Positions 1,920-18,478 of a stretch of 64,000 nucleotides of DNA are shown piece by piece. Numbering within the stretch: the stretch's first letter is position 1; each line of letters opens with the position of its first letter. The translations under genes and the position numbers were made by a program. Under the pieces are notes generated by a model that had not been told where the DNA came from, searched no databases, and saw only the letters and a list, made by a program, of their open reading frames with translations. Source of the DNA: an uncultured Prolixibacteraceae bacterium (GTDB lineage: Bacteria; Bacteroidota; Bacteroidia; Bacteroidales; FEN-979); assembly GCA_964449285.1 (NCBI GenBank), contig CAYUZX010000004.1, positions 1,070-65,069 of the forward strand, read 5' to 3'.

Positions 1920-1936
1920 CCCGTAACGGATCATTC

Positions 1937-4900
1937 ATGAATATCATCCGCTCTTCACTGAAGTACAATCAGGTTTCTCTCGTCACCATCTTTCTCATTT
2001 TCGCCGTGGGGATCTATTCCCTGCTAACGATGTCCCGCCGGTCCGATCCTGAGATCACCATCAGACAAGCGATGGTCATTGCTGTTTATCCTGGCGCCAC
2101 GGCTCAACAGGTAGAAGAACAGGTAACCAAAGCCATTGAAGATAAACTCTTTACATACTCAGAGGTCAAGAAAGATGAGACCTATTCGACCACGTATGAA
2201 GGCTTGGTAACCATTGTGGTGACTCTTGAGGACTGGGTTGAGACTCCCGATCTTTTCTGGGAAAAGCTCAGCCAGGGTCTCTTTCAGCTCTCCAAGATGA
2301 CTCTTCCCCAGGGGGTGCTCGGGCCTCTGGTGGATTCAGATTTCGGAGATGTAGTGGCGTTATTGATTGCTGTAGAAACAGACCAATACTCCTACAACGA
2401 GCTGAAAAATTATATTGAAGTACTCGAGAGTAACCTGCAACAGATCAAATCAGTCTCCAAGATTGATCTTTTAGGCTACCAGGCAGAAGAGATCGAAGTT
2501 GCGTTCAACTCGGCGAAACTGGCCCAGTTTCAAATGGATAAAGCCAACCTGGTAGAAGTGCTGCAAACCCAGAATGTCATCAAGTACTCAGGATTTATTG
2601 AAACCGAGTATGCTAAAGTAAGCTTGTACACCACCGGTTTGTTTTCTCAGGTTGATCAGATCAGGGAATTGATTGTAGGGGTTTCGCCCGGAGGATCTGT
2701 TGTCAGAATAAAGGATGTAGCAGAGGTAATCCGCAAACAGTGTGATCCTACCCAGGTGATCCGGATCAACGGGCATGATCAGCGTGCCATGCTGATCTCC
2801 CTCGAGATGCAGGATGGATACAACATCGTGGAGTTCGGGAAGGAGGTTGACAAGGTCATGGCCGAAACCAAATTGATTCTTCCCTCCGGCCTGAAATTCA
2901 CCACCATTAATAACCAACCCGCGATTGTTCAAAGCGCCGTCAATGATTTCATGCGTGAGTTCCTCATTGCCGTGATAGCAGTGATTCTCACCATCATGCT
3001 GATGTTGCCGTTTAATATCGCCATCATTGCCGCCATTTCGATCCCTGTTTCTATCGGAATGACCTTTACCTTTCTCAACCTGTTCGGGTATGAACTTCAA
3101 CAAGTCTCTCTTGCTTCACTCATCGTTGTGCTCGGGATGGTGGTTGACAATGCGGTAGTAGTGATTGACTCCTACGTGGATAAGCTGGATAAGGGAATCT
3201 CCCGCTTCGACGCAGCGTGGCAAAGCGCTACAGAATTTTCTATTCCGTTGATCTCTTCCACGCTTGCAATCATCATGGCTTTCCTTCCCCTCGTCTTCCT
3301 GCTCACCGGAGCCACCGGCGAATTCCTCATCACACTGCCTATCACAGTGGCAATCTCCATGACCTGCTCCCTGATAGTTGCATTCTTCCTCACACCATTC
3401 CTTGCTTACCTCTTCATCAGAAAAGGATTAGCCAGCAAAGAGCCAGTTGCTAAAGAAGGGGAAATTTCCGGGAAAAAGAAAAAGTTCTCTTTGCTCGGAG
3501 GGATCCAGCATATTTTTAACGGCATGATCGAGTGGACCATGAAACGAAAGATCCTGACCATCGGATTGGGAGCCGCTACCCTGGTTATGGGAGTATTGAT
3601 CATGAGCCTTCCCAAACAACAATTTTTCCCGCCGGCCGAACGGAGCCAGTTTGTGATCCAACTCTTCGAACCACTGGGCACCAGATTTGACGTTACCGCT
3701 TCCCATGTCAAACTGATTGAGAAGATCCTTGCCAAAGATCAGGAGATTACAGGGTTTGCCTCTTTTACCGGCACCTCATCCCCCCGGGTCTATTACAGTT
3801 TTGCCCCGGTATTCCCGATGGAAAGTTATGCCATGTTGCTCGTCAACACGCCCAGTGTGAAAGAGACTGAAAAACTAGCTGCCAAATACGAACAATTGCT
3901 TTGCGATTTTATCCCCAATGCCCAGGTGGATGTGATGCAGTTTGCCCAGGGAGTTCCTGTGATATCTCCTGTAGAGGTCCGTCTCTGTGGCACCAACCTC
4001 ACGGGCCTGAAAACCCTGGGCGGGCAGGTGAAAGAGATCTTCCGGGAAGCAGATGGAAGTAAGCTGGTCAGGCAGGATTTTGAAGACGATTACTGCCTCA
4101 ATATTGTGGTCAATGAAGAGGTGGCAAACCAGATGGGATTTACCACTGAAGTGATTGCCGGTTTTATGGGTGCCGGTCTTCACGGTGCTCCTGTATCCAC
4201 GCTTTGGGAGGAAGATGACCCCCTTGCCATCAACTTCAGGCTGCAAAAAGGTCTGCGAAGCAACTTTGACGACATCCGTAATACCTATATTTTATCCCCG
4301 GTTACCGGAAAAAGCATTCCTTTAAGGCAAATTGCAAGCTTGAAGCCTACCTGGCAAACAGGCCAGATCACCCGCCGGAATGGAATTCCAACCCTCACCA
4401 CAGGATGTAAATCTGAGCCCGGCATGCTCGCCTCAGAGGTACTTGACCAGATCAAACCCCGGATAGATACACTGTCGCTGCCACCAGGATTTTCCATGGC
4501 ATACGGAGGGGATATCAAAAACCAGGATGAAACATTTGGCAACATGATAATCGCACTGATTGTTAGCGTGGTAAGTATCTTCCTTATTTTGCTTTTCGAG
4601 TTCAAAGATGCCGCCCGGCCACTCATCATCATGGTTTCTATTCCCCTGACACTCTTCGGGTCAATGCTTGGGCTGGTTGTTACCGGGAATGTCTTTAGTT
4701 TTACTGCTTTTGTTGGCTTGATTGCACTGGTTGGCATCGTTATCCGTAATGCCCTGATCATCGTCGATCATGCCGATCATCTTGTGGCCGAAGAGAAGAT
4801 TTCGTATGCGCAAGCGGCCTTGGAGTCGGCTAAACGCAGGTTACGGCCGATCTTCCTCACCACAATGGCCGCCGCCATCGGAGTAGTTCCGATGATTGTG

Positions 4901-5035
4901 ATGAAAGATCCTTTGTGGGCTCCGCTTGCCAGCGTGTTTGCTTTCGGAATCGTGGTTTCGATGGTACTAACCCTGTTGGTGATCCCGGCCTTGTACGGAT
5001 TGGTGATCAAAGAAAAGAAATTCATTGGCGATTAA
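1937..5035 (+). CDS. RND efflux permease (AcrB-type)
   Basis: 1032 aa; 12-TM layout with two large periplasmic loops; conserved TM4/TM10-like motifs LGMVVDNAVVVID and VGIVIRNALIIVD. Confidence 0.95.
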   Translation: MNIIRSSLKYNQVSLVTIFLIFAVGIYSLLTMSRRSDPEITIRQAMVIAVYPGATAQQVEEQVTKAIEDKLFTYSEVKKDETYSTTYEGLVTIVVTLEDWVETPDLFWEKLSQGLFQLSKMTLPQGVLGPLVDSDFGDVVALLIAVETDQYSYNELKNYIEVLESNLQQIKSVSKIDLLGYQAEEIEVAFNSAKLAQFQMDKANLVEVLQTQNVIKYSGFIETEYAKVSLYTTGLFSQVDQIRELIVGVSPGGSVVRIKDVAEVIRKQCDPTQVIRINGHDQRAMLISLEMQDGYNIVEFGKEVDKVMAETKLILPSGLKFTTINNQPAIVQSAVNDFMREFLIAVIAVILTIMLMLPFNIAIIAAISIPVSIGMTFTFLNLFGYELQQVSLASLIVVLGMVVDNAVVVIDSYVDKLDKGISRFDAAWQSATEFSIPLISSTLAIIMAFLPLVFLLTGATGEFLITLPITVAISMTCSLIVAFFLTPFLAYLFIRKGLASKEPVAKEGEISGKKKKFSLLGGIQHIFNGMIEWTMKRKILTIGLGAATLVMGVLIMSLPKQQFFPPAERSQFVIQLFEPLGTRFDVTASHVKLIEKILAKDQEITGFASFTGTSSPRVYYSFAPVFPMESYAMLLVNTPSVKETEKLAAKYEQLLCDFIPNAQVDVMQFAQGVPVISPVEVRLCGTNLTGLKTLGGQVKEIFREADGSKLVRQDFEDDYCLNIVVNEEVANQMGFTTEVIAGFMGAGLHGAPVSTLWEEDDPLAINFRLQKGLRSNFDDIRNTYILSPVTGKSIPLRQIASLKPTWQTGQITRRNGIPTLTTGCKSEPGMLASEVLDQIKPRIDTLSLPPGFSMAYGGDIKNQDETFGNMIIALIVSVVSIFLILLFEFKDAARPLIIMVSIPLTLFGSMLGLVVTGNVFSFTAFVGLIALVGIVIRNALIIVDHADHLVAEEKISYAQAALESAKRRLRPIFLTTMAAAIGVVPMIVMKDPLWAPLASVFAFGIVVSMVLTLLVIPALYGLVIKEKKFIGD

Positions 5036-5047
5036 ACCATTAAAAAG

Positions 5048-6415
5048 ATGTTTCGCAGCTATATTCTATTATCCCTTCTTCTCGTTACAGGAACTGCCAT
5101 CCATGCCCAGGACACCCTGTATATGAACCTCAGCCAGGCTATAGATTCGGCTCAGAACAACAACCGACTCATCCGGATCTTTCAATACCGTATCAAAAAC
5201 GCCCAGGGCAAGTTAACTGAAATGAAGAGCCACTACTATCCAAGAGTGATCCTCGACGGGTCGTTCGCCTATAACTCTGATCCGAACATCCGTCTGAAAA
5301 AGGGGGAGTTAAACAGGGCAGTCGAAGAGCTCATCAACATCGAATGGATCGATGAGCTCATCACCGACTATTTCCCCATTCCACCCAAGGATATGATCAT
5401 TCTCTATGGCCAGGATTTCTTTATAAAATCAAACCTCGGACTCTATCAACCTCTGAGTCAATTAACTACAATTAACACTGGCAGGAAGGTGGCGGAAACC
5501 GACCTGCTCATCAGCGAGATCGAGAAGGAGAATATCATCTCTCAGATCCGGCTGGGGATTACCGAACTCTTCTATGGGATCCTGATCGAATCCAAAAACG
5601 AAGCGTACGCCCTTTACGACGTTGACTATGCTAAATCTGAATACCGTGATGCCGTGAATGCCAGTGAAGCCGGAGAGGTTCTTCCCATTGATGTGCTTGG
5701 GCTGGAGGCGGAGATCCATGAAAAAGAGGGGGAACTCTTGCAGATCCGGAATAAAAAAGAGCAGTATCTGCTAACCTTCGGACAGATGGTGGGATTGGAT
5801 GATCCCCTGGTTCCTGTCCCGCGACTAGACTCTGTTTCCCTCTCCGTCCCTGCACCACTTCCCGATTACGAGAGGCTGGCTTCTAAAAACAACTTCGAAC
5901 TCGGGATTGCCGGCCTCACGATGCACAAAGCAGATCTTGGTATCACGGCAGCAAAGAAAGGATACATCCCTGAATTGACGGCATTTGCCCAATACAATTA
6001 CAATTATGGGATCCCTCTTTTCCCCGAATCCTACCTGTTGGCCGGACTGAATCTCACCTGGACACTTGTGGCTGCCGGAGAGCGTAAAGCGCTGGTTAAT
6101 CAGCGAAATGCATTGTTTATGGAGGCTTCTGAGGATTTTCAATACAAGACCCGCCAGATCCGGAATGAGGTACGTTCCAGCTATCTGAACATCATCTATG
6201 CACAGAAATTAATTGTCACCGCACAAAAAGCCTTAGTTGCCAGACAGGCGGAGTATCAGCTGGCAAAGGATGCTGTAGAAGAGGGAGAGGCGCTTCCAGG
6301 CGTATTCCTCCAGGCACGTGCCGACCTGGCTAAAGCCGAAGCAGATATGCTGGGAGCCCAGCTCAACTACCAGATCATTATCGCCAAAATGAAGCGGCTG
6401 ACAGGAGAGGAGTAA
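5048..6415 (+). CDS. TolC-family outer membrane efflux protein
   Basis: 455 aa; signal peptide; two-repeat coiled-coil/beta-barrel TolC pattern; third gene of the RND operon. Confidence 0.9.
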   Translation: MFRSYILLSLLLVTGTAIHAQDTLYMNLSQAIDSAQNNNRLIRIFQYRIKNAQGKLTEMKSHYYPRVILDGSFAYNSDPNIRLKKGELNRAVEELINIEWIDELITDYFPIPPKDMIILYGQDFFIKSNLGLYQPLSQLTTINTGRKVAETDLLISEIEKENIISQIRLGITELFYGILIESKNEAYALYDVDYAKSEYRDAVNASEAGEVLPIDVLGLEAEIHEKEGELLQIRNKKEQYLLTFGQMVGLDDPLVPVPRLDSVSLSVPAPLPDYERLASKNNFELGIAGLTMHKADLGITAAKKGYIPELTAFAQYNYNYGIPLFPESYLLAGLNLTWTLVAAGERKALVNQRNALFMEASEDFQYKTRQIRNEVRSSYLNIIYAQKLIVTAQKALVARQAEYQLAKDAVEEGEALPGVFLQARADLAKAEADMLGAQLNYQIIIAKMKRLTGEE

Positions 6416-6472: not shown

Positions 6473-9400
6473 ATGGAAAAAGCCAAAAAATTCGGTGCGT
6501 TCGCAGGTGTCTTCACCCCGTCGTTACTGACGATCCTGGGGGTGATCATGTACATGCGGCTGGGCTGGGTTGTTGGACAGGCCGGATTGATCAGCGCCCT
6601 GGTAATCATCGTGCTGGCACATGTGATCTCCATCTCCACCGGCCTGAGTATCTCCTCTATTGCTACGGATAAAAAGATACAAGCTGGAGGGATCTATTAC
6701 ATTCTCTCCCGTAGCCTGGGCCTGCCAATCGGTGGAGCAATCGGGATTACCCTATTTATCGGTACAGCCCTCAGTATCTCTCTCTACCTCGTGGGTTTCG
6801 CTGAAAGCTTCCTCGCCATCGATGCAATACGAAATTTCACCGGCCTGGAGCAGAATGTCACGGGGTTTCGGATTGTGGGAACTGCTGCCATTATTTTTCT
6901 GGTTATCCTCGCCTTTATCAGCACCTCGGTTGCTATCAAGACCCAGTTCTACATCATGGGTGCGATTGGGTTGTCCCTGATCTCCATTGTCGTCGGTTTT
7001 TTTATCAATGATGGGTTTTCTGCAACTACAATAAGCCTCTCCTATCTCCGGGATGGGGTCTCCCCGGAGCTCGTCTTCGCTATTTTCTTCCCGGCTGTCA
7101 CCGGTTTCACTGCCGGCGTTGCCATGTCGGGCGATCTGAAAGACCCAAAAAAGACCATTCCACGAGGGACACTTGCAGCCATCGCCTGCGGGTTTATCAT
7201 CTACGTTGCGCTGGCGGTTAGCTTTGCTCTGTTTGTTGACCGGGATCTCCTGATCAACGACTACAACTTCCTGATGAAGATAGCCTGGTTTGCTCCCTTT
7301 GTGATTGCCGGCATCTGGGGAGCCACCCTCTCCTCTGCCCTGGGAGGCATCCTGGGAGGACCCAGGATTCTGCAGGCGACTTCCGCCGACCGGATCACCC
7401 CGAAGATCTTTGCCCGCGGGTACGGAGCCTCCAATGAACCCCGCAATGCGCTACTGCTTATTTTTCTGATCGCTGAAGCCGGTATCCTCATCGGAGAGCT
7501 GGATGTGATCGCCGGTATCGTGACGATGTTCTACCTTGCCTCCTATGGCTTCATCAACATTGCATTCTTCCTGGAGAACTGGGCCAGTACTGATTTCCGC
7601 CCCTCTTTCCGCGTGAACCGTTACTTCGGGCTGATCGGCTTCATTGCTGCTTTCGGTGTGATGTTCAAGCTGGATATGGTTTCGATGTTTGCTGCTTTCA
7701 TCATCATGGGGCTTCTCTATTCCTATCTTAAACGGCAACAGCGGAATACTGACTCAGGTGATGTATGGCAAAGTGTCTACTCTTCCCTGGTACGGAGCGC
7801 TCTGCACCGGATGCGGAAACGCCCCCTGGAGCAACGTAACTGGCAGCCCAATATCATCCTCTTCAGTGGTGGAACCGAGAAACGTCCGCACCTGATCGAG
7901 TTTGGCAAGTCATTGGTTGGAAGGCATGGCGTGCTCTCCAATTTCGACCTGAAAGAGAATAAAGATGCGCAGATTCTTGTCACCCGAACAGAAGGGGAGA
8001 CGACATCTGTAGAGGAGATGCCTGGCATATTTACCCAGCGGAAAACGGTGAGGGACCTCTACGACGGAATCGAATCCATTGCAGGCGTTTATGGATTTTC
8101 GGGATTTGAGCCCAACACTGTGATGATGGGTTGGGCCAGGGAGACGCAACAACCGGAACGGTTCGCCGACATGCTAACGACACTCTATGAACTCGATCTC
8201 AATGTACTACTTCTCGATTGGGACAAACGGACCGGCTTCGGGAAATACAGCACAATCGATATTTGGTGGAAGGATATCAGCAACCAGGGGAACCTGGCAC
8301 TTGCCCTGTGTAAGCTACTCCTGCTATCTGATCAGTGGAATGGAGCCACGATCCGGCTGATGATCGTCAACTCATTTGCTGAGCAACAGGACCATATAAT
8401 TACCGAAGCAGAAAGGCTGCTCGAAACTCTCCGGATCAACGCTTCCGTAAAGGTGATCGACAACCATATCAAACTTTTGCCCTTCTATGAGATCATGCAG
8501 GTCGAATCCCATACAACCGATCTGGTCATCGCCGGGATCCCCAAGATCGAAAAGGGAAAAGAGGCCGAATATGTTGAAACCACCAGCATTCTTCTGCGTC
8601 AGATAGGCACCGTTCTCCTGATTAAGGCTTCATCAGCATTTAAGAAACTTAGCCTTGAAATTGACAAACACCAGTACAAGTATATCCCCGATCAGGCTGT
8701 TCAACACACCCCATCTGAGAAGTCAAAAGAGACCTCTCAACAGCTTCTGCCAGAGGGGATTCCGGAAGAGCTGAAAAAACTCTATACATCATCTTTACAC
8801 CTGATCTCCCAATTCCACCAGGAGTTCGTTCAGCCAGCTTTCCGGTATAATGTCAATAAAGTCCTGGCTTTGGAAAAAAATATCCAGGATTCGGTACAGC
8901 TGATTGAATCAGAGTCTTTCAGAAGCTTGCCTGCTACAAAGCAAGCCAGACAGTTGGCCTATTTCAAAACGAATCAACTTGTTCTTACGGAGAAAATTAT
9001 CGATGAGCTCCAGAAAACCATCAGCACGGAACAACGCGAGGGCCTCGACAAGGGGATACAATTTCTGATCTCAGGCATCCAGGAATCGGTGGATAAATCC
9101 CCAGCCACCATTAAAATAAGACTCTTTCCCCGTCATCTTGAGATACAAAATAACGATTCGCTTCCCGCCAGAAACTTTAAACGGTTCATCCGCTTCGTAT
9201 ATACTAAAAAGAAAATCAGTGAAGGAATATCCTATACTGTCAGGTTTCAACGGCTGATCCGTAACGTTCTACCAGAAGGCTTCTATCAAAAGCTCGATGC
9301 TTCCCTGATTAATCTCGGACAGCTTAATTTAGATACCATCATCGAAATCCGAAAACTACTGTCGGCTAACCAACTATTTTTTGATCTGTTAGCGTTCCAG

Positions 9401-11674
9401 GAAGTGTCTACCCAGCGTTTGGATGCCGCAAAAAAAGAGATCCAGGAAGCGATTCACACGTTGAAAATGATCAGCGAAAGTACTGACAAAGTATTTGCTG
9501 AAAGGTTAGTTGAGCATTTGTCGCTCCTTTTTGTCGACTTGAGTAATCTCATTGATTCAGGCGCCCCAAATCAAAATACTCCTGAAGACCATAGTATAGC
9601 TACAAAACAACTTCTTCAAAAGTTCACACTGATCCCCGGGCTGTGGGCCGGAAACAGGATTATGCTTTACAATGGGGTCAAACTAGAAATCAGGCTTAGA
9701 CTCTTTTCCTTCCGCCTCAGGAAGCTCCTCGAACGGGCCCTGGATGAAATTGGGCAAGTGACCGATAACTGCATCATTCATCACGCAGGGATATTAAATA
9801 CCCGGGTAAAACAATATCTCGAAGAGCTCAACCATGATCCTTCTTCCCAGTTTAATCTGGATGAATCGGAAATCCAGTGGGACGATAAAACAGATTTTCA
9901 GCTAACCCTGGACAAAATCATTGACAAATCGTTGATTGGGATTAAAGCCCTGGTAAATAAACTGCCTGAAACATCAGAACTTCTTGTCCCGGCCAGTGTG
10001 AAAGAACCAGCCGAATTTATCAGTGAAGAACTAAAACCTGTTGTTCTTCCTACTTATCAGTTGGTGAATTATCATGTTCAGCGCAACCTATTTGAAGCTT
10101 TGCACCGGATCAAGGGAACATTTCCCAAATCTGTTTATATCTCTGCCGGAAGGATTAAAAACGCCCTCCGTCTGGTTAGCATCGGGAACATGAACCCTGA
10201 GGCAAAAAGCACTCTTGAGATGGTGCTCCGTGAAAATGATGCTCCAGAAGGATTCCATGGTGGAGGTGAAGGTTTCACTGATTTTGTCACAGAACAGCTG
10301 AAGGTTGTTGAAGAGGAGTTGAAAAAGATCCAATACGTCCTGGACCACCTCTATTCCGATCTTGAACAGCAGATTAGCACAACCACCGGCGAACTCACAG
10401 TTGCACGTCTTCTCAACACGCCTGACACATACAAAAAGTATATTAAAAAACGAGATGCCCGGCACCGGTTCAATCTGATGAAGAGCTCTCTTCAGTCTGT
10501 CATGCAGCGGCTCTACAGGATGAGTGCGACAATCTGGTACCGGCAAAGTGATGCACTACTCCTTGCTAAAAAGATTAGCGCAGGGGATGTAAAACAAAGG
10601 TCTGTGGTTGACTTATTATTGACCCTCTACGAACGGGTGACTCCACAGGAGGAATTATTGAACAAATTGCCTTTTTACTACCGGCAGCTTTTTCTCCAGA
10701 AGTACAACTTTAAATCTGAGTTCTGGGTAAACCGACAGAAGGAGATTTCCCAGGTACAGCAGGCAATATCCCGTTACATGAAGGGATTCCATGGTGGTAT
10801 CATGATTCGTGGCGACCGGAATACAGGAAAGACCTTCTTCTTAAACTATATCTCTTCAACCTTTTACCAGGGGCATCAGGTTTATGCACTCAGCGCTCCC
10901 CCGGCCGGCTCTTGCAATCCGGAAGTTTTCCTTAAAATGCTTCAGGAGAGTACAGGGATTGATGGGAGTATCGACCAGGTTTTTAACAGCCTGGAGGAAG
11001 ATTCCCTGATCGTAATCGATGACCTTGAGCTGTGGTGGGAGAAATCCGATTCAGGAACAGCAGTTGTGGAGGTGATAGGAGATCTAATCAGGAGATATGG
11101 CCATAAGTGCCTGTTTCTTCTTACAGTCTCTGAAGCCAGTTACCGTGTGATCAGCCAGGTTTCTGAGATCGAATCCTGTATGCTCTCTGTGGTCGACCTC
11201 CAGCCCTTCAACACCCTCGCAATCCAGGAGGTGATTATGTTTCGGCATCAGTCGAGCGGTCTTGATATCCGGAGATCTGATAAAGGAAATGTACGACTGA
11301 CCCGTACTGCCCAGGCAAAACTATTCGCCAGATACTTCAGCTACACCCGTGGAAACATCGGCGCTGCCCTGCTTGCCTGGGTCTCAAATATCACCGATTT
11401 CCAGGACGACACGCTCTACATCAGACAGCCACAGTCTGCCGGCCATGCAATCCTTGAACGGTTAAGCCCTACTGTCAGGCTCTATCTTGTTCAATTTCTG
11501 CTTCATAAACGCCTTGATCTGCCCAAACTTCAGCGATTGACATTGGATCCTGCGAATGAAGTGGAAAAACAGCTTCTCTTCCTGAAACGGGCAGGGTTAA
11601 TCAATGAACGCGCTGGCCATATTTTTGAACTTGACAGGTATCTCTATATTCACCTCAAACATGTCATTCAGTAA
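6473..11674 (+). CDS. Cation-chloride cotransporter (SLC12/APC superfamily) fused to a ~1000-aa cytoplasmic extension ending in a P-loop ATPase and a winged-helix-like tail
   Basis: Single uninterrupted 1733-aa ORF. The first ~735 aa are SLC12-like (FGAFAGVFTPSLLTILGVIMYMRLGWVVGQAG, 12 TM, then NWQPNIILFSGG / VMMGWA / IDIWW cytoplasmic domain). Walker A GDRNTGKT is at 10811-10834 and Walker B LIVIDDLE at 11006-11029. Confidence 0.85.
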   Translation: MEKAKKFGAFAGVFTPSLLTILGVIMYMRLGWVVGQAGLISALVIIVLAHVISISTGLSISSIATDKKIQAGGIYYILSRSLGLPIGGAIGITLFIGTALSISLYLVGFAESFLAIDAIRNFTGLEQNVTGFRIVGTAAIIFLVILAFISTSVAIKTQFYIMGAIGLSLISIVVGFFINDGFSATTISLSYLRDGVSPELVFAIFFPAVTGFTAGVAMSGDLKDPKKTIPRGTLAAIACGFIIYVALAVSFALFVDRDLLINDYNFLMKIAWFAPFVIAGIWGATLSSALGGILGGPRILQATSADRITPKIFARGYGASNEPRNALLLIFLIAEAGILIGELDVIAGIVTMFYLASYGFINIAFFLENWASTDFRPSFRVNRYFGLIGFIAAFGVMFKLDMVSMFAAFIIMGLLYSYLKRQQRNTDSGDVWQSVYSSLVRSALHRMRKRPLEQRNWQPNIILFSGGTEKRPHLIEFGKSLVGRHGVLSNFDLKENKDAQILVTRTEGETTSVEEMPGIFTQRKTVRDLYDGIESIAGVYGFSGFEPNTVMMGWARETQQPERFADMLTTLYELDLNVLLLDWDKRTGFGKYSTIDIWWKDISNQGNLALALCKLLLLSDQWNGATIRLMIVNSFAEQQDHIITEAERLLETLRINASVKVIDNHIKLLPFYEIMQVESHTTDLVIAGIPKIEKGKEAEYVETTSILLRQIGTVLLIKASSAFKKLSLEIDKHQYKYIPDQAVQHTPSEKSKETSQQLLPEGIPEELKKLYTSSLHLISQFHQEFVQPAFRYNVNKVLALEKNIQDSVQLIESESFRSLPATKQARQLAYFKTNQLVLTEKIIDELQKTISTEQREGLDKGIQFLISGIQESVDKSPATIKIRLFPRHLEIQNNDSLPARNFKRFIRFVYTKKKISEGISYTVRFQRLIRNVLPEGFYQKLDASLINLGQLNLDTIIEIRKLLSANQLFFDLLAFQEVSTQRLDAAKKEIQEAIHTLKMISESTDKVFAERLVEHLSLLFVDLSNLIDSGAPNQNTPEDHSIATKQLLQKFTLIPGLWAGNRIMLYNGVKLEIRLRLFSFRLRKLLERALDEIGQVTDNCIIHHAGILNTRVKQYLEELNHDPSSQFNLDESEIQWDDKTDFQLTLDKIIDKSLIGIKALVNKLPETSELLVPASVKEPAEFISEELKPVVLPTYQLVNYHVQRNLFEALHRIKGTFPKSVYISAGRIKNALRLVSIGNMNPEAKSTLEMVLRENDAPEGFHGGGEGFTDFVTEQLKVVEEELKKIQYVLDHLYSDLEQQISTTTGELTVARLLNTPDTYKKYIKKRDARHRFNLMKSSLQSVMQRLYRMSATIWYRQSDALLLAKKISAGDVKQRSVVDLLLTLYERVTPQEELLNKLPFYYRQLFLQKYNFKSEFWVNRQKEISQVQQAISRYMKGFHGGIMIRGDRNTGKTFFLNYISSTFYQGHQVYALSAPPAGSCNPEVFLKMLQESTGIDGSIDQVFNSLEEDSLIVIDDLELWWEKSDSGTAVVEVIGDLIRRYGHKCLFLLTVSEASYRVISQVSEIESCMLSVVDLQPFNTLAIQEVIMFRHQSSGLDIRRSDKGNVRLTRTAQAKLFARYFSYTRGNIGAALLAWVSNITDFQDDTLYIRQPQSAGHAILERLSPTVRLYLVQFLLHKRLDLPKLQRLTLDPANEVEKQLLFLKRAGLINERAGHIFELDRYLYIHLKHVIQ

Positions 11675-11698
11675 TTATATAAATAAGGAGACACACCT

Positions 11699-12439
11699 AT
11701 GGAAATAACCGGCCCCGATCCTGCTCATCTCTTCCTTCGGTTTGTTGGATGGGGGATGGCGATTTTCCTGGTAATCCGCCTGCTCCGGTTCTTACTGCCA
11801 ATCCTCCTTTACAAAGAGAAGCCCAGGAATTTTTTCATAAAAATATTTCCTTTGGCCGAACTGGTCTTCTGGATGGTATACCTTTCCTGGTTCGTATTTC
11901 TCTTTTACGAAGCCGATGAGATCTATGTATTTGTGGTTCTGGCTATTTTACTGATGTTACTTTTCTGGATATCCCGCTTCTGGATGAAAGATATTATAGC
12001 CGGTGTGTTTTTCCGAAGTTCCACTCGACTGAAAGCAGAGGATCAGCTTCATTTCGGGGAGCTCAAAGGGACGATCAAGAAGTTCGGAAGCTCCTCCCTC
12101 GAACTTGAGACACAGGATAACCAAACCATTTTTATCCCATATGCAAAACTTGTTGATGCTGTAAACATCAAGAGTGAACGGACCGGCCAAAGCAAAGGGT
12201 ATACGTTTATCCTGGATTGTCCCAGAAAAGAGGAGATCAGTGCGCTTACACAGCAAATAAAGTCGACCATCCTCTCCACACCCTGGGTGTCGGTAAACCG
12301 AATGTCAGTAATCACTTTGGCCACCCAGACAGAGGAGAACTATTCTTTTGAAATCACAGTGTTTCCGATCGACAAGAGCTTTGCAGGAAAAATCGAAACA
12401 CTGGTAACGGAGAAATATTCGGGTAAGAAAGACCGGTAA
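11699..12439 (+). CDS. MscS-like small-conductance mechanosensitive channel family protein
   Basis: 246 aa; three N-terminal TM helices, then an MscS beta-domain pattern (IIAGVFF...GELKGTIKKFGSSSLELETQDNQTIFIPYAKLVDAVNIKS). Starts 24 nt after the transporter stop with AGGAG upstream. Confidence 0.75.
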   Translation: MEITGPDPAHLFLRFVGWGMAIFLVIRLLRFLLPILLYKEKPRNFFIKIFPLAELVFWMVYLSWFVFLFYEADEIYVFVVLAILLMLLFWISRFWMKDIIAGVFFRSSTRLKAEDQLHFGELKGTIKKFGSSSLELETQDNQTIFIPYAKLVDAVNIKSERTGQSKGYTFILDCPRKEEISALTQQIKSTILSTPWVSVNRMSVITLATQTEENYSFEITVFPIDKSFAGKIETLVTEKYSGKKDR

Positions 12440-12515: not shown

Positions 12516-13061
12516 CTATCGCAGCCCTGTATGCATCCACTCCAGGAAAAAGAAGAGTGCAAATCCATCGATCGAACAGTTAATCTTGTTTGTGTTTATC
12601 ATGGGAACAATCTCCTCCATCGCGGTAAAATGAAGGCCAAGGATTCCTTCATTCCGGTCAAACGCATTAACCGGGATTTCATCTTTAATCTCTGCAGCGA
12701 AGATAAAGACTTTCTCATCGGTCAGGCTTGGAGCTGGAAAAACTTCTTTCAGCAGATGCCATGTTTCCGACATGAGCCCGGTCTCTTCCAGCAGTTCTCG
12801 CCTTGCAGCCACAATCGGCTCTTCTCCGGCATCAATTCTTCCGCCTGGAAGCTCATAAGTCAACGCACCTATCAGATATCTGTTCAGGGAGATCAATCCG
12901 ATGGAATTTCTCGTGTATGGAATTATACTCACCGAGCCGGGTTTCTTTAGGTAATAGAAATCCCGATGGCCAATTTTACCAATCTCCACATCATCGTGAA
13001 TAACATCGAAACGGGGAGTGGAACAGAGAAAATTTCGTTGGTTCAGGGTATATTTGATCAT
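12516..13061 (-). CDS. NUDIX hydrolase (ADP-ribose pyrophosphatase-like)
   Basis: 181 aa; Nudix box GGRIDAGEEPIVAARRELLEETG. Confidence 0.9.
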   Translation of the reverse strand: MIKYTLNQRNFLCSTPRFDVIHDDVEIGKIGHRDFYYLKKPGSVSIIPYTRNSIGLISLNRYLIGALTYELPGGRIDAGEEPIVAARRELLEETGLMSETWHLLKEVFPAPSLTDEKVFIFAAEIKDEIPVNAFDRNEGILGLHFTAMEEIVPMINTNKINCSIDGFALFFFLEWMHTGLR

Positions 13062-13196: not shown

Positions 13197-14030
13197 CTAA
13201 AATTCGTCCGGCAGTTTACTCAACTCCTCATAAGTGAATACCGGACCATCTTTGCATACGTAGGTACTTCCGATGTTGCATCGACCACATTTACCCAGTC
13301 CGCACTGCATCTTCATCTCCAACGTTGTGATCACATCTTTGGGATTAAAACCGAGCTTATCGAGTGACATGAGCGTATACTTGATCATGATTGGCGGGCC
13401 GCAGGTGATGACCTTCGTGTTCTCAATGGTTGGTTTCACCACCTCTTCCAGAATTTTTGGGACAACACCTACATTTTCTTTCCAGGTATCTTCAGGCTTA
13501 TCAATCGTCAGAACCACCCTGAGCGATTTATTGTTCACCCACTCTTCGATCTCCTCTTTGTAACAGATATCAGCCGAGGTACGAGCTCCATAGAGAATAG
13601 TAAAATCATTATAATCGTTGCGATTATCTATGGCGTACTGGATAAGTGACCGTAACGGGGCTAACCCGATACCACCTCCGACAAAGAGCAGGTTCTTCCC
13701 TTTTAGGTCTTCAATTGGGAACCAATTTCCATAGGGTCCTCTGATTCCAACTTCATCCCCTTCATCCACATCACGGTGTATATCAGCAGTTACAATCCCG
13801 GCACGTTTTATAGAACAGTCGAACGTGCCTTTCCGTGTTGCCGAGGAAGCGATGCAAAAGGTGCATTCCCCACTGCCAAGCAGGGAGAACTCTACAAATT
13901 GACCTGGAAGCCAGTCAAATTTCTCTGTCAATGATTCATCCCTGAATTTCAACCGGTAAGTCCTTACATCCGGAGTCTCCTGGATGATCTTATCGACCGT
14001 ACAGATCATGGGGACTAGAAGTTGTTCCAT
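13197..14030 (-). CDS. FAD/NAD(P)-binding oxidoreductase with C-terminal 2Fe-2S site (FlxA / AsrB / hydrogenase-gamma-like)
   Basis: 277 aa; ferredoxin-reductase-type fold motifs (GQFVEF, LLFVGGGIGLAPL) and C-terminal CGLGKCGRCNIG cluster motif. Last gene of the hdr-flx-type cluster. Confidence 0.85.
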   Translation of the reverse strand: MEQLLVPMICTVDKIIQETPDVRTYRLKFRDESLTEKFDWLPGQFVEFSLLGSGECTFCIASSATRKGTFDCSIKRAGIVTADIHRDVDEGDEVGIRGPYGNWFPIEDLKGKNLLFVGGGIGLAPLRSLIQYAIDNRNDYNDFTILYGARTSADICYKEEIEEWVNNKSLRVVLTIDKPEDTWKENVGVVPKILEEVVKPTIENTKVITCGPPIMIKYTLMSLDKLGFNPKDVITTLEMKMQCGLGKCGRCNIGSTYVCKDGPVFTYEELSKLPDEF

Positions 14031-14040
14031 ATTCTCAAAT

Positions 14041-14064
14041 GGTGAAATGGTGAAAAAGCGAAAT
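14041..14064. repeat. Octamer tandem array GGTGAAAT x3
   Basis: ggtgaaat ggtgaaaa agcgaaat, in the flxA-like/flxB-like spacer. Confidence 0.85.
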
Positions 14065-14084
14065 TAAGTTTCATATTCTTCTAT

Positions 14085-14120
14085 ATTCCTGCATTGTTGC
14101 ATTGTTTCATTCCTGCATTG
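14085..14120. repeat. Octamer tandem array ATTCCTGC (complement GCAGGAAT) x4.5
   Basis: attcctgc attgttgc attgtttc attcctgc attg; contains the stop and the last 3 codons of the flxB-like gene. Confidence 0.9.
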
Positions 14121-15156
14121 AACCAGCAACCTTGTTAACGACTTCGAATATGCTGATGTTCACCGGGCAGGAGGTGGTGCACTTCCCGCAGCCGACACAG
14201 AGGTTCATCCCAAACCGCTCCTTGTAATAGACAAACTTGTGCATGGCGCGCTGACGCCAGCGCCGGTATTTTACCTGCCTTGGATTATGACCGCCTGCCA
14301 TCAGGGTAAAGTAGACATTATTACAGGAGTCGTAACTCTTGTATCTGACTCCTTCATCCCGTAGTTTCTCGTCGGAAATTTTAAAACAGTGACAGGTGGG
14401 GCACACAAACGCGCATGTATTGCAACTGACACAGGTGGCCGGAATATCTTCAAACGCTGGTGAATCAAACTTGCCCTGCATCTTTTCATTGATCTCATTG
14501 TAGTCCATCTTCAGGCGGAAAGAACTTGCAAACTTCACAAACTGCTTCTTCATCTCCTCCTGGGCAGAACCATTGGCAACCGATATGCCTTTTGCATTCT
14601 CTTTCAAAAATAGCTCCCCCTTTTCGGTGCGGGCCTGCAGATAAATCGTTCCGTTCAATCCGTTGATAACGGCTACGTCAAAGGCGTCCAGTTTCTCCAC
14701 ATCGTAGTCGAGAGAGGTACAAAAACAATGGGTGGAAGCCTCATTGCAACGGGTTGAAATCAGAATCGTATTCTCCCTGCGTTTTTCGTAATCGGTATCC
14801 ACGTAGTCCCACTTGTAGACGGCATCCAATACCTGAAGGCCACGTGCATCACAATGCTTGACACCCAAAATAACCCGTTTCCCTGCCAATGGATCTTCGT
14901 CGGTATCCATGAGTTCAGTCCCTTCACTAGTGGCCTTGTATTTCATCACCTTTGCTGATTTAGGGAAGAAGAGCGGTTTTATGCTCATCGTCGAAGGGAT
15001 GGGTGAATCAGTGTTGCATCTGGAAAGGGAATCAACCTTGATGAAATCAAATTTGCCAAATTTTTCCACCGGTGCGTAGGTATCATGAGCGCTGATGATT
15101 GCCTCATAAAACGCCTGAAGTCCGGCAGGATCAGTACTATATGTTGTCAGGTTCAT
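14107..15156 (-). CDS. 4Fe-4S dicluster protein (FlxB / AsrA-like)
   Basis: 349 aa; CVSCNTCAFVCPTCHC and CVGCGKCTTSCP ferredoxin motifs. The last three codons and the stop lie inside an octamer repeat array. Confidence 0.8.
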   Translation of the reverse strand: MNLTTYSTDPAGLQAFYEAIISAHDTYAPVEKFGKFDFIKVDSLSRCNTDSPIPSTMSIKPLFFPKSAKVMKYKATSEGTELMDTDEDPLAGKRVILGVKHCDARGLQVLDAVYKWDYVDTDYEKRRENTILISTRCNEASTHCFCTSLDYDVEKLDAFDVAVINGLNGTIYLQARTEKGELFLKENAKGISVANGSAQEEMKKQFVKFASSFRLKMDYNEINEKMQGKFDSPAFEDIPATCVSCNTCAFVCPTCHCFKISDEKLRDEGVRYKSYDSCNNVYFTLMAGGHNPRQVKYRRWRQRAMHKFVYYKERFGMNLCVGCGKCTTSCPVNISIFEVVNKVAGSMQE

Positions 15157-15168
15157 CGTTTAGAAAGG

Positions 15169-16020
15169 TTACATGATAAAATCGTCAGGATCACTCAAGC
15201 TGTATTTGTAGAAAGCTCCCCGGTCATCCTGGATCATTCCGGCCAGGTGTTCCTGGAAGTTCTCGTAAATCACCTTTTCGTTTTGCTTATGCAAGAGGTG
15301 TAGCGGGAGATGGCTTGGACAAGCTTTTTCACAGTTACGGCAATCCACACACCGTCCGGCCAGGTGTAGCGACCATGTCATGAGGGCATGAAACGCACTT
15401 GAGGTAGTATTAGCTCCCTGGAAGAGGGTAGCAGTTTCCTGGTCGATACAGCACTTGGCGCAATAGCAAAGGGGACAGGAGTGGCGGCATGCATTACAGC
15501 GGATGCAGCTCTCAAACACCTCTTCGAAATATTCCTGCCGTTCGGTCAGACTTTTTCCGTCCAGTTCACGGATGTCGGCATTCACCTGATAGTCACGTTT
15601 TCCGGATGGTGTGCCAAGGATCTCATCATAGATCACGGCATCAGGCATCACACATTCAACGCAGTTCTGAGCCTTCTCCCCCGTTTCATCCACAACGCCT
15701 TCACAGGCGATCCCGACGATATAGAGATTTTCGCGCTTTACCTGGTTTTCGGTCAGCATCAGGTTCAGAGCCCGGCTGTCGCACCCTTTTACAACCAATC
15801 CCACCCGTTTATTCCTGGTATGCTCGTACTTCAGGTAGTTTGCGAGGTTGAAAACCGATTTATCAGTGAAGAGTAGCTGATCCACATCTTTGTAGTGCTT
15901 GATCAGCACCGGCACCTGGTTCTCATCAAAGCCCGTATTGCGGTAACCGATGAAGAGATCAATCTTCTCTTCAGAGAATAGTCTTCCCGCAATGTCCTGG
16001 ATTTGCTTTGTATAGTCCAT
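15169..16020 (-). CDS. 4Fe-4S cluster protein (FlxC-like)
   Basis: 283 aa; CIRCNACRHSCPLCYC and CVDCRNCEKACP motifs; sits between the MvhD-like and FlxB-like genes. Confidence 0.7.
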   Translation of the reverse strand: MDYTKQIQDIAGRLFSEEKIDLFIGYRNTGFDENQVPVLIKHYKDVDQLLFTDKSVFNLANYLKYEHTRNKRVGLVVKGCDSRALNLMLTENQVKRENLYIVGIACEGVVDETGEKAQNCVECVMPDAVIYDEILGTPSGKRDYQVNADIRELDGKSLTERQEYFEEVFESCIRCNACRHSCPLCYCAKCCIDQETATLFQGANTTSSAFHALMTWSLHLAGRCVDCRNCEKACPSHLPLHLLHKQNEKVIYENFQEHLAGMIQDDRGAFYKYSLSDPDDFIM

Positions 16021-16025
16021 GTTTA

Positions 16026-16505
16026 TTAAATATTTTCCTTTTTATACAGATGAAGCGGTCCCAGCTTTTTAATATCCTCCGTAACCTTTGTCACCACTTT
16101 GGCAAACTTCGGTCCCTCCGCAGCCGATACCCAGGAAAACTGGACCCGGTCTTCATGGAATCCGACTAAGTTCAGCAGTTTCTTTGTCACCAGGAATCTT
16201 CTTCTGGCATAATAATTTCCAGAGATGTAATGACAATCACCAGGATGGCATCCCGAAATAAGCACGCCATCGGCCGAGGTTTGGAGTGACTTGATAATAA
16301 ACCACGGATCCACACGGCTGGAACAGGGCACCCGTATGATCCGGATGTTCGGCGGGTACTGAAGCCGGCTTGTTCCGGTAAGGTCGGAACCTGCATAGGA
16401 ACACCAGTTGCACAGGATCCCCATGATCACTGGCTGCCAGTCGGGAGGCGCTTCCAGGTGGGGTTTCTCGATGCTGACAATTTTCTCTTTTACTTCTGTT
16501 TCCAT
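16026..16505 (-). CDS. MvhD/FlxD-like hydrogenase iron-sulfur subunit
   Basis: 159 aa; CNWCSYAGSD ... GVLISGCHPGDCHY signature of the methyl-viologen-reducing hydrogenase delta subunit family. Start shares nt 16505 with the hdrA stop. Confidence 0.9.
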   Translation of the reverse strand: METEVKEKIVSIEKPHLEAPPDWQPVIMGILCNWCSYAGSDLTGTSRLQYPPNIRIIRVPCSSRVDPWFIIKSLQTSADGVLISGCHPGDCHYISGNYYARRRFLVTKKLLNLVGFHEDRVQFSWVSAAEGPKFAKVVTKVTEDIKKLGPLHLYKKENI

Positions 16506-18478
16506 CAGATAGATACTATCTCGTTAATGATTTGCATATCGGTGAATCCGGCCAGATCGATGGCCATGCTACGGCAGATTGCCACACAGGAGCCGCAACC
16601 CTGGCAAACTCCTTCGTTGATCTTTGCCACTATCCTGATCTCTTTTGATCCGTGGCCCATCGGAATCTCTTCGGTTACGATTGCCTGGTAAGGACAAACT
16701 GTGACACAGTTCTGGCAACCGGTACAATACTCGGTATTGACTTTGGAGACCATGGGATCCTTCAGGAGGGTATCCCCTGCAAAGAGTCCGCATACCTTGG
16801 CAGCGGTTGCCGATGCCTGTGCAACGGTATCGGGGATGTCTTTGGGAGCCTGAGTACAGCCAGCCAGGAAGATGCCAGCTTTGGCAGTCTCCACCGGGCG
16901 TAATTTTGGATGAGCTTCCGAAAGGAATCCGTACTTGTCGTACGAGATGCCCAGCAGTCGGGCCAGCTCGGGGTTATCTTTGTATGGATAGATTGCTGTA
17001 GCCAGCACCACCAGGTCGGCCTCCACCTCAACCACCTGCCCAATCTGGGCATCTTCCCCGCGTACCATCAGCTTTTCTCCCTTCTGGTAAATCTTCGAGA
17101 CCCTTCCGCGAAGGTAGGTAGCACCAGTTTCAACCTGGGACCGTTTCACAAACTCTTCATACCCTTTTCCTGCCGCTCGGATATCCATGTAGAAGACATA
17201 AGCATGCGAGTCATGTACTTTGTGATGCAGCAAGAGGGTATGCTTGGCAGTATACATGCAACAGATCTTGGAACAGTATTCAATTCCTTTGGCCTCGTCG
17301 CGGGAGCCCACACATTGGATGAAGACGACAGATTTAGGGATTTTGCCATCAGATGGCCGAACCGGAACTCCGCCGGTTGGGCCACTAGCTGAGACCATCC
17401 GCTCAAACTCCAGGGAGTTGATGATGTCCTTGTAACGTCCCACACCATATTCTTCGTACGGTTTCGGATCCCAGAGATCATAGCCGGTAGCAACAACAAC
17501 AGCTCCGATCTCTCGTTCAATGATCTCATCCTGCATGGTATAGTCAATGGATCCCTTTTCACACACCTTGGCACAGATTCCGCATTTGCCTTTTAACAGC
17601 ATGGTGCAGTGTTCTGCATCGATGACCGGTTTGTTGGGAACCGCTTGTGGAAATGGGCTATAGATCGCTTTCCGTTTATCAATGCCCATGTTGAATTCAT
17701 TTGGAACTTTTACGGGGCACTTCTGCACACAGGCGCCACAACCCGTGCAGGTATCGAAATTCACATAGGATGCTTTCCGTTTGATCTTCACCTTGTAATT
17801 TCCCACATAGCCATCCAACTCTATTACTTCGGAGTAAGGAAGCAGTTCAATGTAGGGATGGCTGGCCACATCCACCATCTTGGGGGTAAGGATGCACTGG
17901 GAGCAATCAAGCGTAGGAAAAGTCTCATCCAGCTGAGCCATTTTGCCCCCGATTGATGGGCTCTTCTCGACCAGCACCACCGGGATTCTGGCATCAGCGA
18001 TATCCAGCGCTGCCTGGATGCCAGCAATCCCGCCTCCGATAACAAGTGCCCGTTTGGTCACCGGAACCGAGATCTCATGCAACTGTTCGTTGGCGATGGA
18101 CTTAGCCACTGCCATCCTCACCAGGTCACTTGATTTTTCAGTAGCAGCTTTTTTGTCTTTCTGATGAACCCAGGAGGAGTGCTCCCTAATGTTGGCCACT
18201 TCGAGTAGATAGGGATTCATCCCGGCATCAGAGAGAGCTTTCCTGAAAGTCTTTTCGTGCATCCGCGGGGAGCAAGCTGCAACGACAATTGAGGTGAGCC
18301 GGTGCGCCACAATGGCATCCCGTATCATCCCCTGTCCGGGGTCAGAGCACATATATTTGTAGTCGATGGCATATTTGACCCCTTTGATCTTTTTTGCCTC
18401 TTCCACCACTGCCGGAACATCCACAAAATCGGCGATGTTCGCGCCACAAAAACAAACAAAAACACCTACGCGAGCCAT
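16505..18478 (-). CDS. hdrA: Heterodisulfide reductase subunit A-like FAD/Fe-S protein
   Basis: 657 aa; FAD-binding VIGGGIAGIQAAL plus several CxxCxxCxxxCP ferredoxin motifs (CTGCGACVQKCP, CTGCQNCVTVCP, CQGCGSCVAIC). Confidence 0.9.
   Translation of the reverse strand: MARVGVFVCFCGANIADFVDVPAVVEEAKKIKGVKYAIDYKYMCSDPGQGMIRDAIVAHRLTSIVVAACSPRMHEKTFRKALSDAGMNPYLLEVANIREHSSWVHQKDKKAATEKSSDLVRMAVAKSIANEQLHEISVPVTKRALVIGGGIAGIQAALDIADARIPVVLVEKSPSIGGKMAQLDETFPTLDCSQCILTPKMVDVASHPYIELLPYSEVIELDGYVGNYKVKIKRKASYVNFDTCTGCGACVQKCPVKVPNEFNMGIDKRKAIYSPFPQAVPNKPVIDAEHCTMLLKGKCGICAKVCEKGSIDYTMQDEIIEREIGAVVVATGYDLWDPKPYEEYGVGRYKDIINSLEFERMVSASGPTGGVPVRPSDGKIPKSVVFIQCVGSRDEAKGIEYCSKICCMYTAKHTLLLHHKVHDSHAYVFYMDIRAAGKGYEEFVKRSQVETGATYLRGRVSKIYQKGEKLMVRGEDAQIGQVVEVEADLVVLATAIYPYKDNPELARLLGISYDKYGFLSEAHPKLRPVETAKAGIFLAGCTQAPKDIPDTVAQASATAAKVCGLFAGDTLLKDPMVSKVNTEYCTGCQNCVTVCPYQAIVTEEIPMGHGSKEIRIVAKINEGVCQGCGSCVAICRSMAIDLAGFTDMQIINEIVSI

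Follow-up and report, generated by a model that had tools for sequence, protein, structure and literature searches.

We studied a 64,000-nt stretch of DNA (the window) from an uncultured Prolixibacteraceae bacterium (GenBank assembly GCA_964449285.1, contig CAYUZX010000004.1) and describe two adjacent genes in it, both on the forward (+) strand. The first, the fusion gene, is one open reading frame (ORF) at 6473..11674 with an ATG start; its 1,733-aa product begins as a cation-chloride cotransporter (CCC) of the SLC12 family and continues into an extension of ~1,000 residues that comprises a large helical domain, a predicted AAA+ ATPase and a winged helix. The second, the partner gene, is the following ORF at 11699..12439 and encodes a 246-aa protein of the MscS family. 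An ORF of 1,733 aa cannot arise by chance. The parts are known ones in a combination that is undescribed, widespread and under selection, with the addition of one domain without a known fold. We give a probability of about one half to the reading that the two genes make up a conserved module for ion and volume homeostasis, in which a salt importer switched by ATP is coupled to an MscS-type partner. An earlier note on this DNA had outlined the same anatomy (CCC transporter, long helical region, P-loop ATPase, winged helix, then an MscS-family gene), and that outline is fully borne out: its coordinates and motifs are all correct, including the single ORF at 6473-11674, and the strings that it quoted (FGAFAGVFTPSLLTILGVIMYMRLGWVVGQAG, NWQPNIILFSGG, FLKRAGLINERAGHIFELD, VMMGWA, IDIWW, VLLIKASS, GDRNTGKT and LIVIDDLE) are all found in the translation.

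The transporter part retains the ion-binding residues of NKCC-type cotransporters

The first 735 residues comprise two regions typical of the family. The transmembrane (TM) domain (6473..7792, aa 1-440) has the APC/LeuT fold with ~12 TM helices, as indicated by a match to Pfam AA_permease (aa 13-435, 6.8e-48) and by the structures of NKCC1 and KCC proteins; ~12-13 hydrophobic segments are present in the fusion protein, all within aa 7-420. The cytoplasmic C-terminal domain (7793..8677, aa 441-735) is delineated by Pfam SLC12 (aa 592-664, 26.5 bits, marginally below the cut-off of 27), by the K-Cl cotransporter model TIGR00930 (411 bits, best stretch aa 266-676) and by the alignment to KCC3, which is the best sequence match in the PDB (7ngb, E=2e-80). 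KCC4 and NKCC1 were also matched. The NKCC1 matches begin at residue 5 of the fusion protein, and the KCC stretches reach residue 710 and thus take in the cytoplasmic C-terminal domain. With every sequence-testable feature of the family present, the fusion protein is classified on sequence as a member of SLC12/CCC (TC 2.A.30).

In alignments to human NKCC1 (hNKCC1), Y358 corresponds to Y686, which we take to be a Cl- site residue. The K+ site retains Y105, corresponding to hNKCC1 Y383, a K+-site position that is His in the K+-independent NCC (PMC9713717), together with P207 and T210 (hNKCC1 P496 and T499), and the Na+ site retains A284, S287 and S288 (hNKCC1 A610, S613 and S614; site identities for both groups from PMC9713717). 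Conservation of each of the seven residues is 98% or higher in a set of 104 fused proteins, to which the residue counts below also refer. Because of this conservation the transporter looks functional and NKCC-like, and we infer that it is Na+-coupled and K+-competent.

The fusion recurs across hundreds of species

A fusion of this size could in principle result from an assembly chimera or from the loss of a stop codon between two genes, and the GC content does fall from ~0.52 in the CCC part to ~0.44 in the extension near 8.5 kb, at the domain boundary. The earlier note had raised the possibility of a lost stop at ~8.7 kb, but relatives show no stop codon there, and the CCC-extension junction is in frame in every close relative. 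Furthermore, the exact 1,733-aa protein occurs on 9 contigs from four sources, and the fusion itself recurs: no fewer than 103 clusters at 50% identity contain it, as do 58 independent species genomes. The recurrence of the fusion and the identical protein on 9 contigs refute an artifactual origin, to which we assign a negligible probability. The drop in GC lies inside one ORF whose frame is intact and coincides with the point where the membrane domain gives way to a helical region with abundant Lys, Glu and Leu; amino-acid composition probably accounts for it, and it could also be a trace of the ancestral fusion.

The extent of the family became apparent from an exhaustive profile search covering 1.84 billion representatives (clusters at 50% identity), which matched 3,728 representatives at 1e-3, 2,929 at 1e-10 and 1,456 at 1e-30, whereas word-index homology searches returned 12-13 relatives only. 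Among the top matches of the profile search, all 103 representatives with a length of 1,600 aa or more have the CCC N-terminus, and many shorter ones are fragments ended by contig ends. A scan of one genome per species for the pattern [DN]D[LIM]EL[WY]WE, taken from the alignment of the ATPase module, located relatives in at least 256 species, a number that is a lower bound because the scan demanded the motif. Locus counts given from here on refer to the best 80 of these 256 species-level loci. Most of the 80 are in Bacteroidota (Bacteroidales, Prolixibacteraceae, Marinilabiliales and Cytophagales), and the others include Ignavibacteria, Calditrichia and Myxococcota-type metagenome-assembled genomes (MAGs). 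The closest relative is a Prolixibacteraceae MAG with 85% identity. Hundreds of species belonging to Bacteroidota, Ignavibacteria, Calditrichia and Myxococcota have this architecture, which is therefore no rarity; the proteins were already in databases, named only for the permease.

Within the 80 loci the fused ORF is intact in 58 and cut by a contig end in 13, and in the remaining 9 (L042, L052, L054, L066, L074, L078, L079, L021 and L009) it is split into two or more ORFs, with the CCC ORF directly upstream. Since several of the split loci are from MAGs of a single sampling series (isolate names with 'MFD'), which we take to be long-read assemblies, the splits are likely frameshift errors rather than real gene breaks; possible exceptions are L042 and L079, from deltaproteobacterial MAGs, which may be genuine split genes. 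Comparison with the closest relative gave ratios of nonsynonymous to synonymous substitution (dN/dS) of 0.04 for the TM domain, 0.07 for the C-terminal domain, 0.15 for the helical domain, 0.07 for the AAA+ domain and 0.08 for the winged helix. All five regions are therefore under purifying selection.

The extension combines a helical domain without structural relatives and a predicted AAA+ module

No hydrophobic or TM segment occurs after aa 420 anywhere in the extension, so aa 736-1733 are expected to be cytoplasmic, and a membrane-embedded extension was ruled out on the same grounds. We modeled aa 741-1733 with AlphaFold2 (AF2) from a 44-sequence alignment and obtained a mean predicted local distance difference test score (pLDDT) of 84.5. 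The stretch at 8678..8734 (aa 736-754) is a probable flexible linker between the CCC part and the extension: it is poorly conserved in family alignments, and pLDDT is <50 over aa 741-754, the first 14 residues of the model. It is followed by an all-alpha domain (8735..10627, aa 755-1385) of nine helices, each 24-81 residues long, along with two small beta elements; modeled alone (aa 756-1385), this domain forms one compact unit with a pLDDT of 87.2 and a predicted template modeling score (pTM) of 0.79. Foldseek found no significant match to this domain in the PDB (best E=0.45), Pfam, NCBIfam and PADLOC gave no match, and self-comparison of four helical segments detected no convincing internal repeat (best pair 63% probability). 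The ~700-aa helical stretch without a motif that was described previously is indeed helical and devoid of recognizable motifs, with a length closer to 630 aa.

The conserved motifs LPFYYxQLF and EFWVxR precede the last part of the chain, in which three domains can be distinguished in the model. These are an AAA+ alpha/beta ATPase base with five strands (10628..11206, aa 1386-1578), which contains the Walker A motif GDRNTGKT (10811..10834, aa 1447-1454) and a Walker B region LIVIDDLE (11006..11029, aa 1512-1519) that runs into the family signature DDLELWWE; an AAA+ helical lid (11207..11446, aa 1579-1658; helices at extension residues 841-898); and a winged-helix domain (11447..11671, aa 1659-1733; extension residues 926-980). 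The winged helix, predicted in the earlier note, has the expected topology in the model, with H1, H2 and H3 at extension residues 926-938, 943-950 and 954-966 and wing strands at 970-973 and 977-980. In a Foldseek search of the PDB, the extension model matched archaeal Orc2/Cdc6 (1w5t, E=1.1e-7; 2qby, 1.7e-6; also 1fnn), RuvB (1in4, E=6e-7; also 8efy) and the Pyrococcus Walker-type ATPase PABY2304, an Arch_ATPase protein (2qen, E=4.2e-6). Orc/Cdc6, RuvB and PABY2304 are AAA+ proteins built of a base, a lid and a C-terminal winged helix. An NTPase fold is accordingly predicted around 10.8-11.1 kb, and the first guess of an Arch_ATPase-, AAA- or STAND-like layout agrees with it, the top Foldseek matches ranging from E=1e-7 to 4e-6.

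Sequence profiles recognize this tail weakly. AAA_16 scored 19.8-20.2 bits on the fusion protein (E ~1e-3) against a cut-off of 32.6 and exceeded that cut-off, with 37.6 bits, on the divergent relative P0010; ATPase_2 reached 15.9 bits (cut-off 33.2), NACHT 13-15 bits (cut-off 26.7, E 0.02-0.09) and nSTAND3, on P0010 only, 25.1 bits (cut-off 27.2), while nSTAND_NTPase5 and BrxC/D were weak Pfam matches below their cut-offs. A single-sequence search of the PDB with the ATPase tail returned nothing meaningful, and the family profile weakly matched ArsR-type winged helix-turn-helix (wHTH) proteins (E=0.013-0.8) and the D1 domain of ClpC. According to the structural model, the tail is an AAA+ fold of the Orc/Cdc6-RuvB-Arch_ATPase type, though below the curated Pfam cut-offs. 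We advise against classifying it as a STAND NTPase, because no NOD model passed and because the chain stops with the winged helix, leaving no sensor repeats beyond it.

The nucleotide motifs of the tail are conserved. G1452 is invariant (104/104) and the Walker A K1453 is Lys in 98 of the 104 proteins, Arg in 5 and Asn in 1; D1517 is kept in 90 and E1519 in 97, as are, in the signature that follows, W1521 (97) and W1522 (101). The sensor-1 candidate (the N1553 position, at the end of beta4) is Asn in 78 of the 104 and Ser in the 1,733-aa fusion protein itself. Inside the lid, R1591 (104/104) and H1592 (101/104) are candidates for sensor 2. The change of the Walker A Lys to Arg (NSGRT) is seen in P0042, P0061 and three further family members, which may bind ATP without hydrolyzing it.

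The winged helix also invites a different explanation, in which the protein is a membrane-tethered one-component regulator, or "transceptor": the CCC would sense ion flux or occupancy, a MalT- or Orc-like ATPase would act as the switch, and the winged helix would bind DNA and so control genes, possibly its own operon. The canonical wHTH topology of the modeled tail, its weak resemblance to DNA-binding ArsR-type proteins (with the E-values given above) and the fact that its nearest folds, Orc/Cdc6 and RuvB, act on DNA and end in a winged helix are all in keeping with this idea. We nonetheless consider it unlikely, as the ion-site residues are kept as in working transporters, clustering of genes within 5 kb revealed no conserved target gene besides the MscS-like neighbor, and winged helices of STAND-type switches and of RuvB are known to make intramolecular or protein contacts. 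In addition, soluble extensions encoded on their own (see below) retain the MscS-like partner, a sign that what they act on is a membrane protein and not DNA. The winged helix may instead be, and on the reading that we favor more probably is, the closing domain of an ATPase/lid/winged-helix switch.

An MscS-family gene is the conserved neighbor

The protein encoded at 11699..12439 has three hydrophobic segments, taken as three TM helices, followed by a beta domain and an alpha/beta domain. Pfam MS_channel_2nd scored 29.8 bits on it (cut-off 20.2), and a profile of 37 partner proteins aligned colinearly with E. coli MscS (2vv5) over residues 30-241 (E=6e-19). The hinge glycine in TM3b is invariant (G102, MscS G121). 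By these sequence measures the partner is a true MscS-family protein (PF00924) with a minimal MscS layout, and the MscS-like gene that had been reported 24 nt downstream on the same strand is confirmed as a family member. The fusion gene ends with TAA (11672-11674), and the 24-nt spacer up to the ATG of the partner gene (11675..11698) holds no terminator-like site.

When genes within 5 kb of the loci were clustered, the MscS-like family was the sole one conserved across lineages (67 loci). It lies directly downstream on the same strand at 64 of the 74 loci with enough sequence, with gaps typically of -4 to +24 nt; a 4-nt overlap, found in 16 loci, suggests translational coupling. At 9 fused loci a Na+/H+ exchanger gene (PF00999, 67.9 bits) comes after the MscS-like gene. 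One locus without an MscS-like gene, L016, has as its next gene (9354-10745) a 463-aa ORF with the P-loop LSGLRGTGKT, apparently another AAA-type ATPase.

The extension also occurs without a fused transporter. The gene of the stand-alone extension P0012 is flanked by an MscS gene on each side, that of P0161 overlaps an MscS gene lying upstream of it, and P0105 and P0141 each adjoin a partner-type MscS-like gene and a Na+/H+ exchanger gene; P0011 is followed by a 243-aa gene, the family of which was untested, and then by a Na+/H+ exchanger gene. P0024, P0083, P0130 and P0137 have neither an MscS-like nor a Na+/H+ exchanger neighbor; two of these, P0024 and P0137, adjoin a gene for a BipA/TypA-type translational GTPase (L086 9171-10997 and L092 7113-8915, respectively). 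Two fused loci carry a second, stand-alone extension. At L045 it has its own MscS-like gene and lies on the opposite strand, and a plain 752-aa CCC is encoded between the fusion gene and its MscS-like gene (9013-12005, 13856-17039 region); at L058 (11502-16039) it is 1,057 aa long and is followed by a 394-aa MscS-like gene. Since stand-alone extensions keep an MscS-like neighbor, the conserved core appears to be the extension, that is, the helical-ATPase protein, plus the MscS-family protein, and not the transporter. The cation transporter that this core would control is either fused (CCC) or encoded alongside (Na+/H+ exchanger).

Two further explanations can be weighed. One is that the ATPase energizes transport, turning the secondary carrier into an ATP-driven pump in the way that ArsA serves ArsB. 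The covalent joining of a P-loop ATPase to a carrier speaks for this idea, but the ATPase belongs to the Orc/Cdc6/RuvB class of switches and not to the transport ATPases, ~650 residues separate it from the membrane domain, the site of Na+ coupling is preserved, and stand-alone copies without a nearby transporter exist; we regard this explanation as highly improbable.

The other is anti-phage defense by abortive infection, in which a STAND-like NTPase would sense infection and open ion pathways (the CCC and the MscS-like protein), collapsing gradients. STAND NTPases with membrane effectors are common in defense, and the weak matches to NACHT, nSTAND3, nSTAND_NTPase5 and BrxC/D might be read accordingly. 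All of those Pfam matches are below their cut-offs, however, and no sensor repeats lie past the winged helix. PADLOC has no match for the extension or the partner, the neighbors are housekeeping genes that differ by lineage and show no defense-island pattern, the ion-binding residues are conserved as in housekeeping cotransporters, and the gene is kept across whole orders with low dN/dS. We rejected a defense system on the PADLOC result, the housekeeping surroundings and the conserved ion sites, and rate it as very unlikely.

Proposed function

In the homeostasis module that we favor, the transporter part would import Na+ (and K+) together with Cl-, driven by the sodium gradient. The AAA+/lid/winged-helix module would be a nucleotide-dependent switch, by analogy with the same three-part unit in Orc/Cdc6 and STAND proteins, and its ATP- or ADP-bound state could be relayed through the helical arm to the dimer of CCC C-terminal domains, turning salt uptake on or off. 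The cytoplasmic scaffold would also touch the cytoplasmic vestibule of the MscS-like partner, which could have either of two roles: solute release and salt uptake might be reciprocally controlled, or the MscS-like protein might be a membrane-tension sensor that feeds the switch. There is a precedent in the proposal that the binding of nucleotides by the C-terminal domains of CCCs is an osmoregulatory feature of ancient origin (PMC8280820). That the two genes form an ion or osmotic homeostasis unit was already suggested in the earlier note, and the suggestion has gained independent support, with an MscS-like gene as the sole broadly conserved neighbor and with recurrent Na+/H+ exchanger genes; the function itself is still one that we infer.

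Several observations weigh against this reading. Transport, the binding and hydrolysis of ATP, and contact between the two proteins are all predictions from sequence. The pTM of the AF2 extension model is 0.56, which makes the arrangement of its domains uncertain, and the helical domain gives no clue to mechanism. No conserved Arg that could serve as an arginine finger was seen between sensor 1 and the lid in the family alignment, and cooperativity of the kind found in ring-type AAA+ proteins is therefore doubtful. Hydrolysis may not be universal, because the Walker A Lys is replaced by Arg in 5 of 104 fused proteins and because the residue before the Walker B Asp varies among them. The MscS-like gene is not adjacent at 10 of the 74 loci, and 4 of the 9 stand-alone relatives have no MscS-like neighbor. 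Finally, in the family consensus of the partner, the positions of the glycines in the MscS pore helix TM3a (G101, G104, G108 and G113) are occupied by a, l, v and f, and at the constriction L105 is i and L109 is Trp. Since the pore-helix glycines are replaced, the partner may not conduct as MscS does; it belongs to the MscS family, as had been supposed, and the role of an osmotic release valve that was given to it is uncertain.

Some of these points would suit a protein of scaffolding or assembly, in which the helical arm and the ATPase cluster, localize or assemble the transporter and the MscS-like protein, in the manner of a cytoskeletal element or a chaperone, with no direct gating. The ~630 aa of long helices form one compact and confidently modeled unit, AAA+ modules often drive assembly or disassembly, an arginine finger was not identified, and the catalytic residues are partly variable. 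Against this, Walker A, Walker B and the sensor positions are strongly conserved, suggesting that the nucleotide state matters, and the extension pairs with different cation transporters, which fits the regulation of ion flux. A purely structural role of this kind is, in our judgment, improbable, to about the same degree as the membrane-tethered regulator.

An ATP-switched salt importer with an MscS-type partner may be part of something broader. It is possible, if rather doubtful, that the family represents an unrecognized class of prokaryotic cell-volume regulators, in which an AAA+ switch on a helical domain of new fold physically bridges a Na-K-Cl cotransporter and an MscS-derived subunit that was repurposed from a release valve to a tension sensor or regulated gate. 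Such a class would be a functional analog, made from different parts, of the WNK-SPAK control of CCCs in animals, and in other lineages it would also govern Na+/H+ exchangers.

Bacterial CCCs have barely been studied, and this family, which is large and conserved and has the regulator in the same polypeptide and an MscS-type partner adjacent, offers a tractable entry point. If the proposed function is true, it would show how bacteria switch salt uptake on and off, provide the first secondary transporter under the control of an AAA+ module and the first MscS protein with an AAA+ partner, and give a role to a ~630-residue helical domain without a structural relative. It also touches a question of the CCC field, namely the effect of cytoplasmic nucleotide binding on transport (PMC8280820). 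The annotation can be corrected in any case: public names for the proteins are "amino acid permease", "ATP-binding protein" or "hypothetical protein", and hundreds of genomes name the fusion protein just "amino acid permease".

Comparison with known systems

Eukaryotic SLC12 proteins (NKCC1, NCC and KCC1-4) and plain prokaryotic CCCs, such as that of Methanosarcina acetivorans, have the same 12-TM APC core and the same C-terminal domain as the fusion protein (E=2e-80), and the aligned Na+, K+ and presumed Cl- site residues of hNKCC1 are identical in it. Animal CCCs are likewise regulated through the parts of the chain that extend into the cytoplasm at either end, and ATP or ADP is bound by their C-terminal domains (PMC8280820); unlike them, the fusion protein lacks a long regulatory N-terminus, and nothing indicates that kinases control it. 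Plain prokaryotic CCCs end at ~750 aa, as does the 752-aa CCC at L045, whereas the ~1,000-aa C-terminal extension of the fusion protein (helical, AAA+ and winged helix) is not known from any characterized CCC.

The tail has the same three domains in the same order as Orc1/Cdc6, RuvB and Arch_ATPase proteins (PF01637, represented by PABY2304), and shares with them Walker A and Walker B; candidates for a sensor-1 Asn (in most of the family) and a sensor-2 Arg are present. It differs from these proteins in its marginal sequence similarity, in having no recognizable arginine finger and in its location on the C-terminus of a membrane transporter, with links to ion-transport genes rather than to genes of replication or recombination. 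With STAND NTPases (NACHT, NB-ARC, MalT and nSTAND) it has in common the logic of an effector, a nucleotide-binding domain, a helical domain and a winged helix, with the ATPase as a regulatory switch. The hhhhDD-type Walker B, with the acidic residue that comes after it, resembles those of NB-ARC and NACHT. In contrast to STAND proteins, all of its Pfam matches of this kind are sub-cut-off, nothing comes after the winged helix, and the large non-catalytic domain of the fusion protein precedes the ATPase and does not consist of an array of repeats.

The partner is colinear with E. coli MscS and other small MscS-like channels from TM1 through the alpha/beta domain, with three TM helices and the hinge glycine kept, and departs from E. 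coli MscS in the lost TM3a glycines, the Trp at L109 and the tie to a helical-ATPase gene. The concept of a cytoplasmic nucleotide-binding module that tunes an osmoregulatory transporter is shared with the RCK domains of TrkA and KtrA and with TeaD, the USP subunit of the osmolyte transporter TeaABC (for TeaD, see PMC8280820), although the folds are unrelated (RCK or USP versus AAA+) and the size and helical arm of the extension have no counterpart there. A full-text search of the literature, with InterPro and TCDB outside its scope, retrieved no account of this architecture and none of an MscS or CCC protein that has an AAA+ partner. In the part of the searchable literature that was available, the prokaryotic CCC work cited consists of the crystal structure of an archaeal C-terminal domain only.

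Surrounding genes in the window

A search of the whole window (1-64000) against Rfam gave no match at or above a gathering score. Upstream, a complete RND-type efflux operon (897-6415, +) ends 57 nt before the fusion gene on the same strand. It consists of a membrane-fusion protein (MFP) gene (897-1919; HlyD_D23 match) and two ORFs of 1,032 aa (1937-5035) and 455 aa (5048-6415); judged by their translations rather than by a scan, these two look like an RND pump and an outer-membrane factor, respectively. Efflux modules (OEP, MFP and MacB/FtsX ABC) are also found near the relatives at L001, L004 and L091; the proximity may be a coincidence, because such operons are abundant in Bacteroidota. Downstream of the partner gene, on the reverse strand, lie a NUDIX hydrolase gene identified by a library scan (12516-13061), an ORF that resembles a redox subunit by the look of its translation (13197-14030) and two Cys-rich ORFs (14107-15156 and 15169-16020) that look, in the same way, like Fe-S redox subunits. 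The genes at 12516-13061 and 13197-14030 are beside the module in close relatives only (8 and 6 loci, respectively), and their proximity therefore reflects ordinary synteny.

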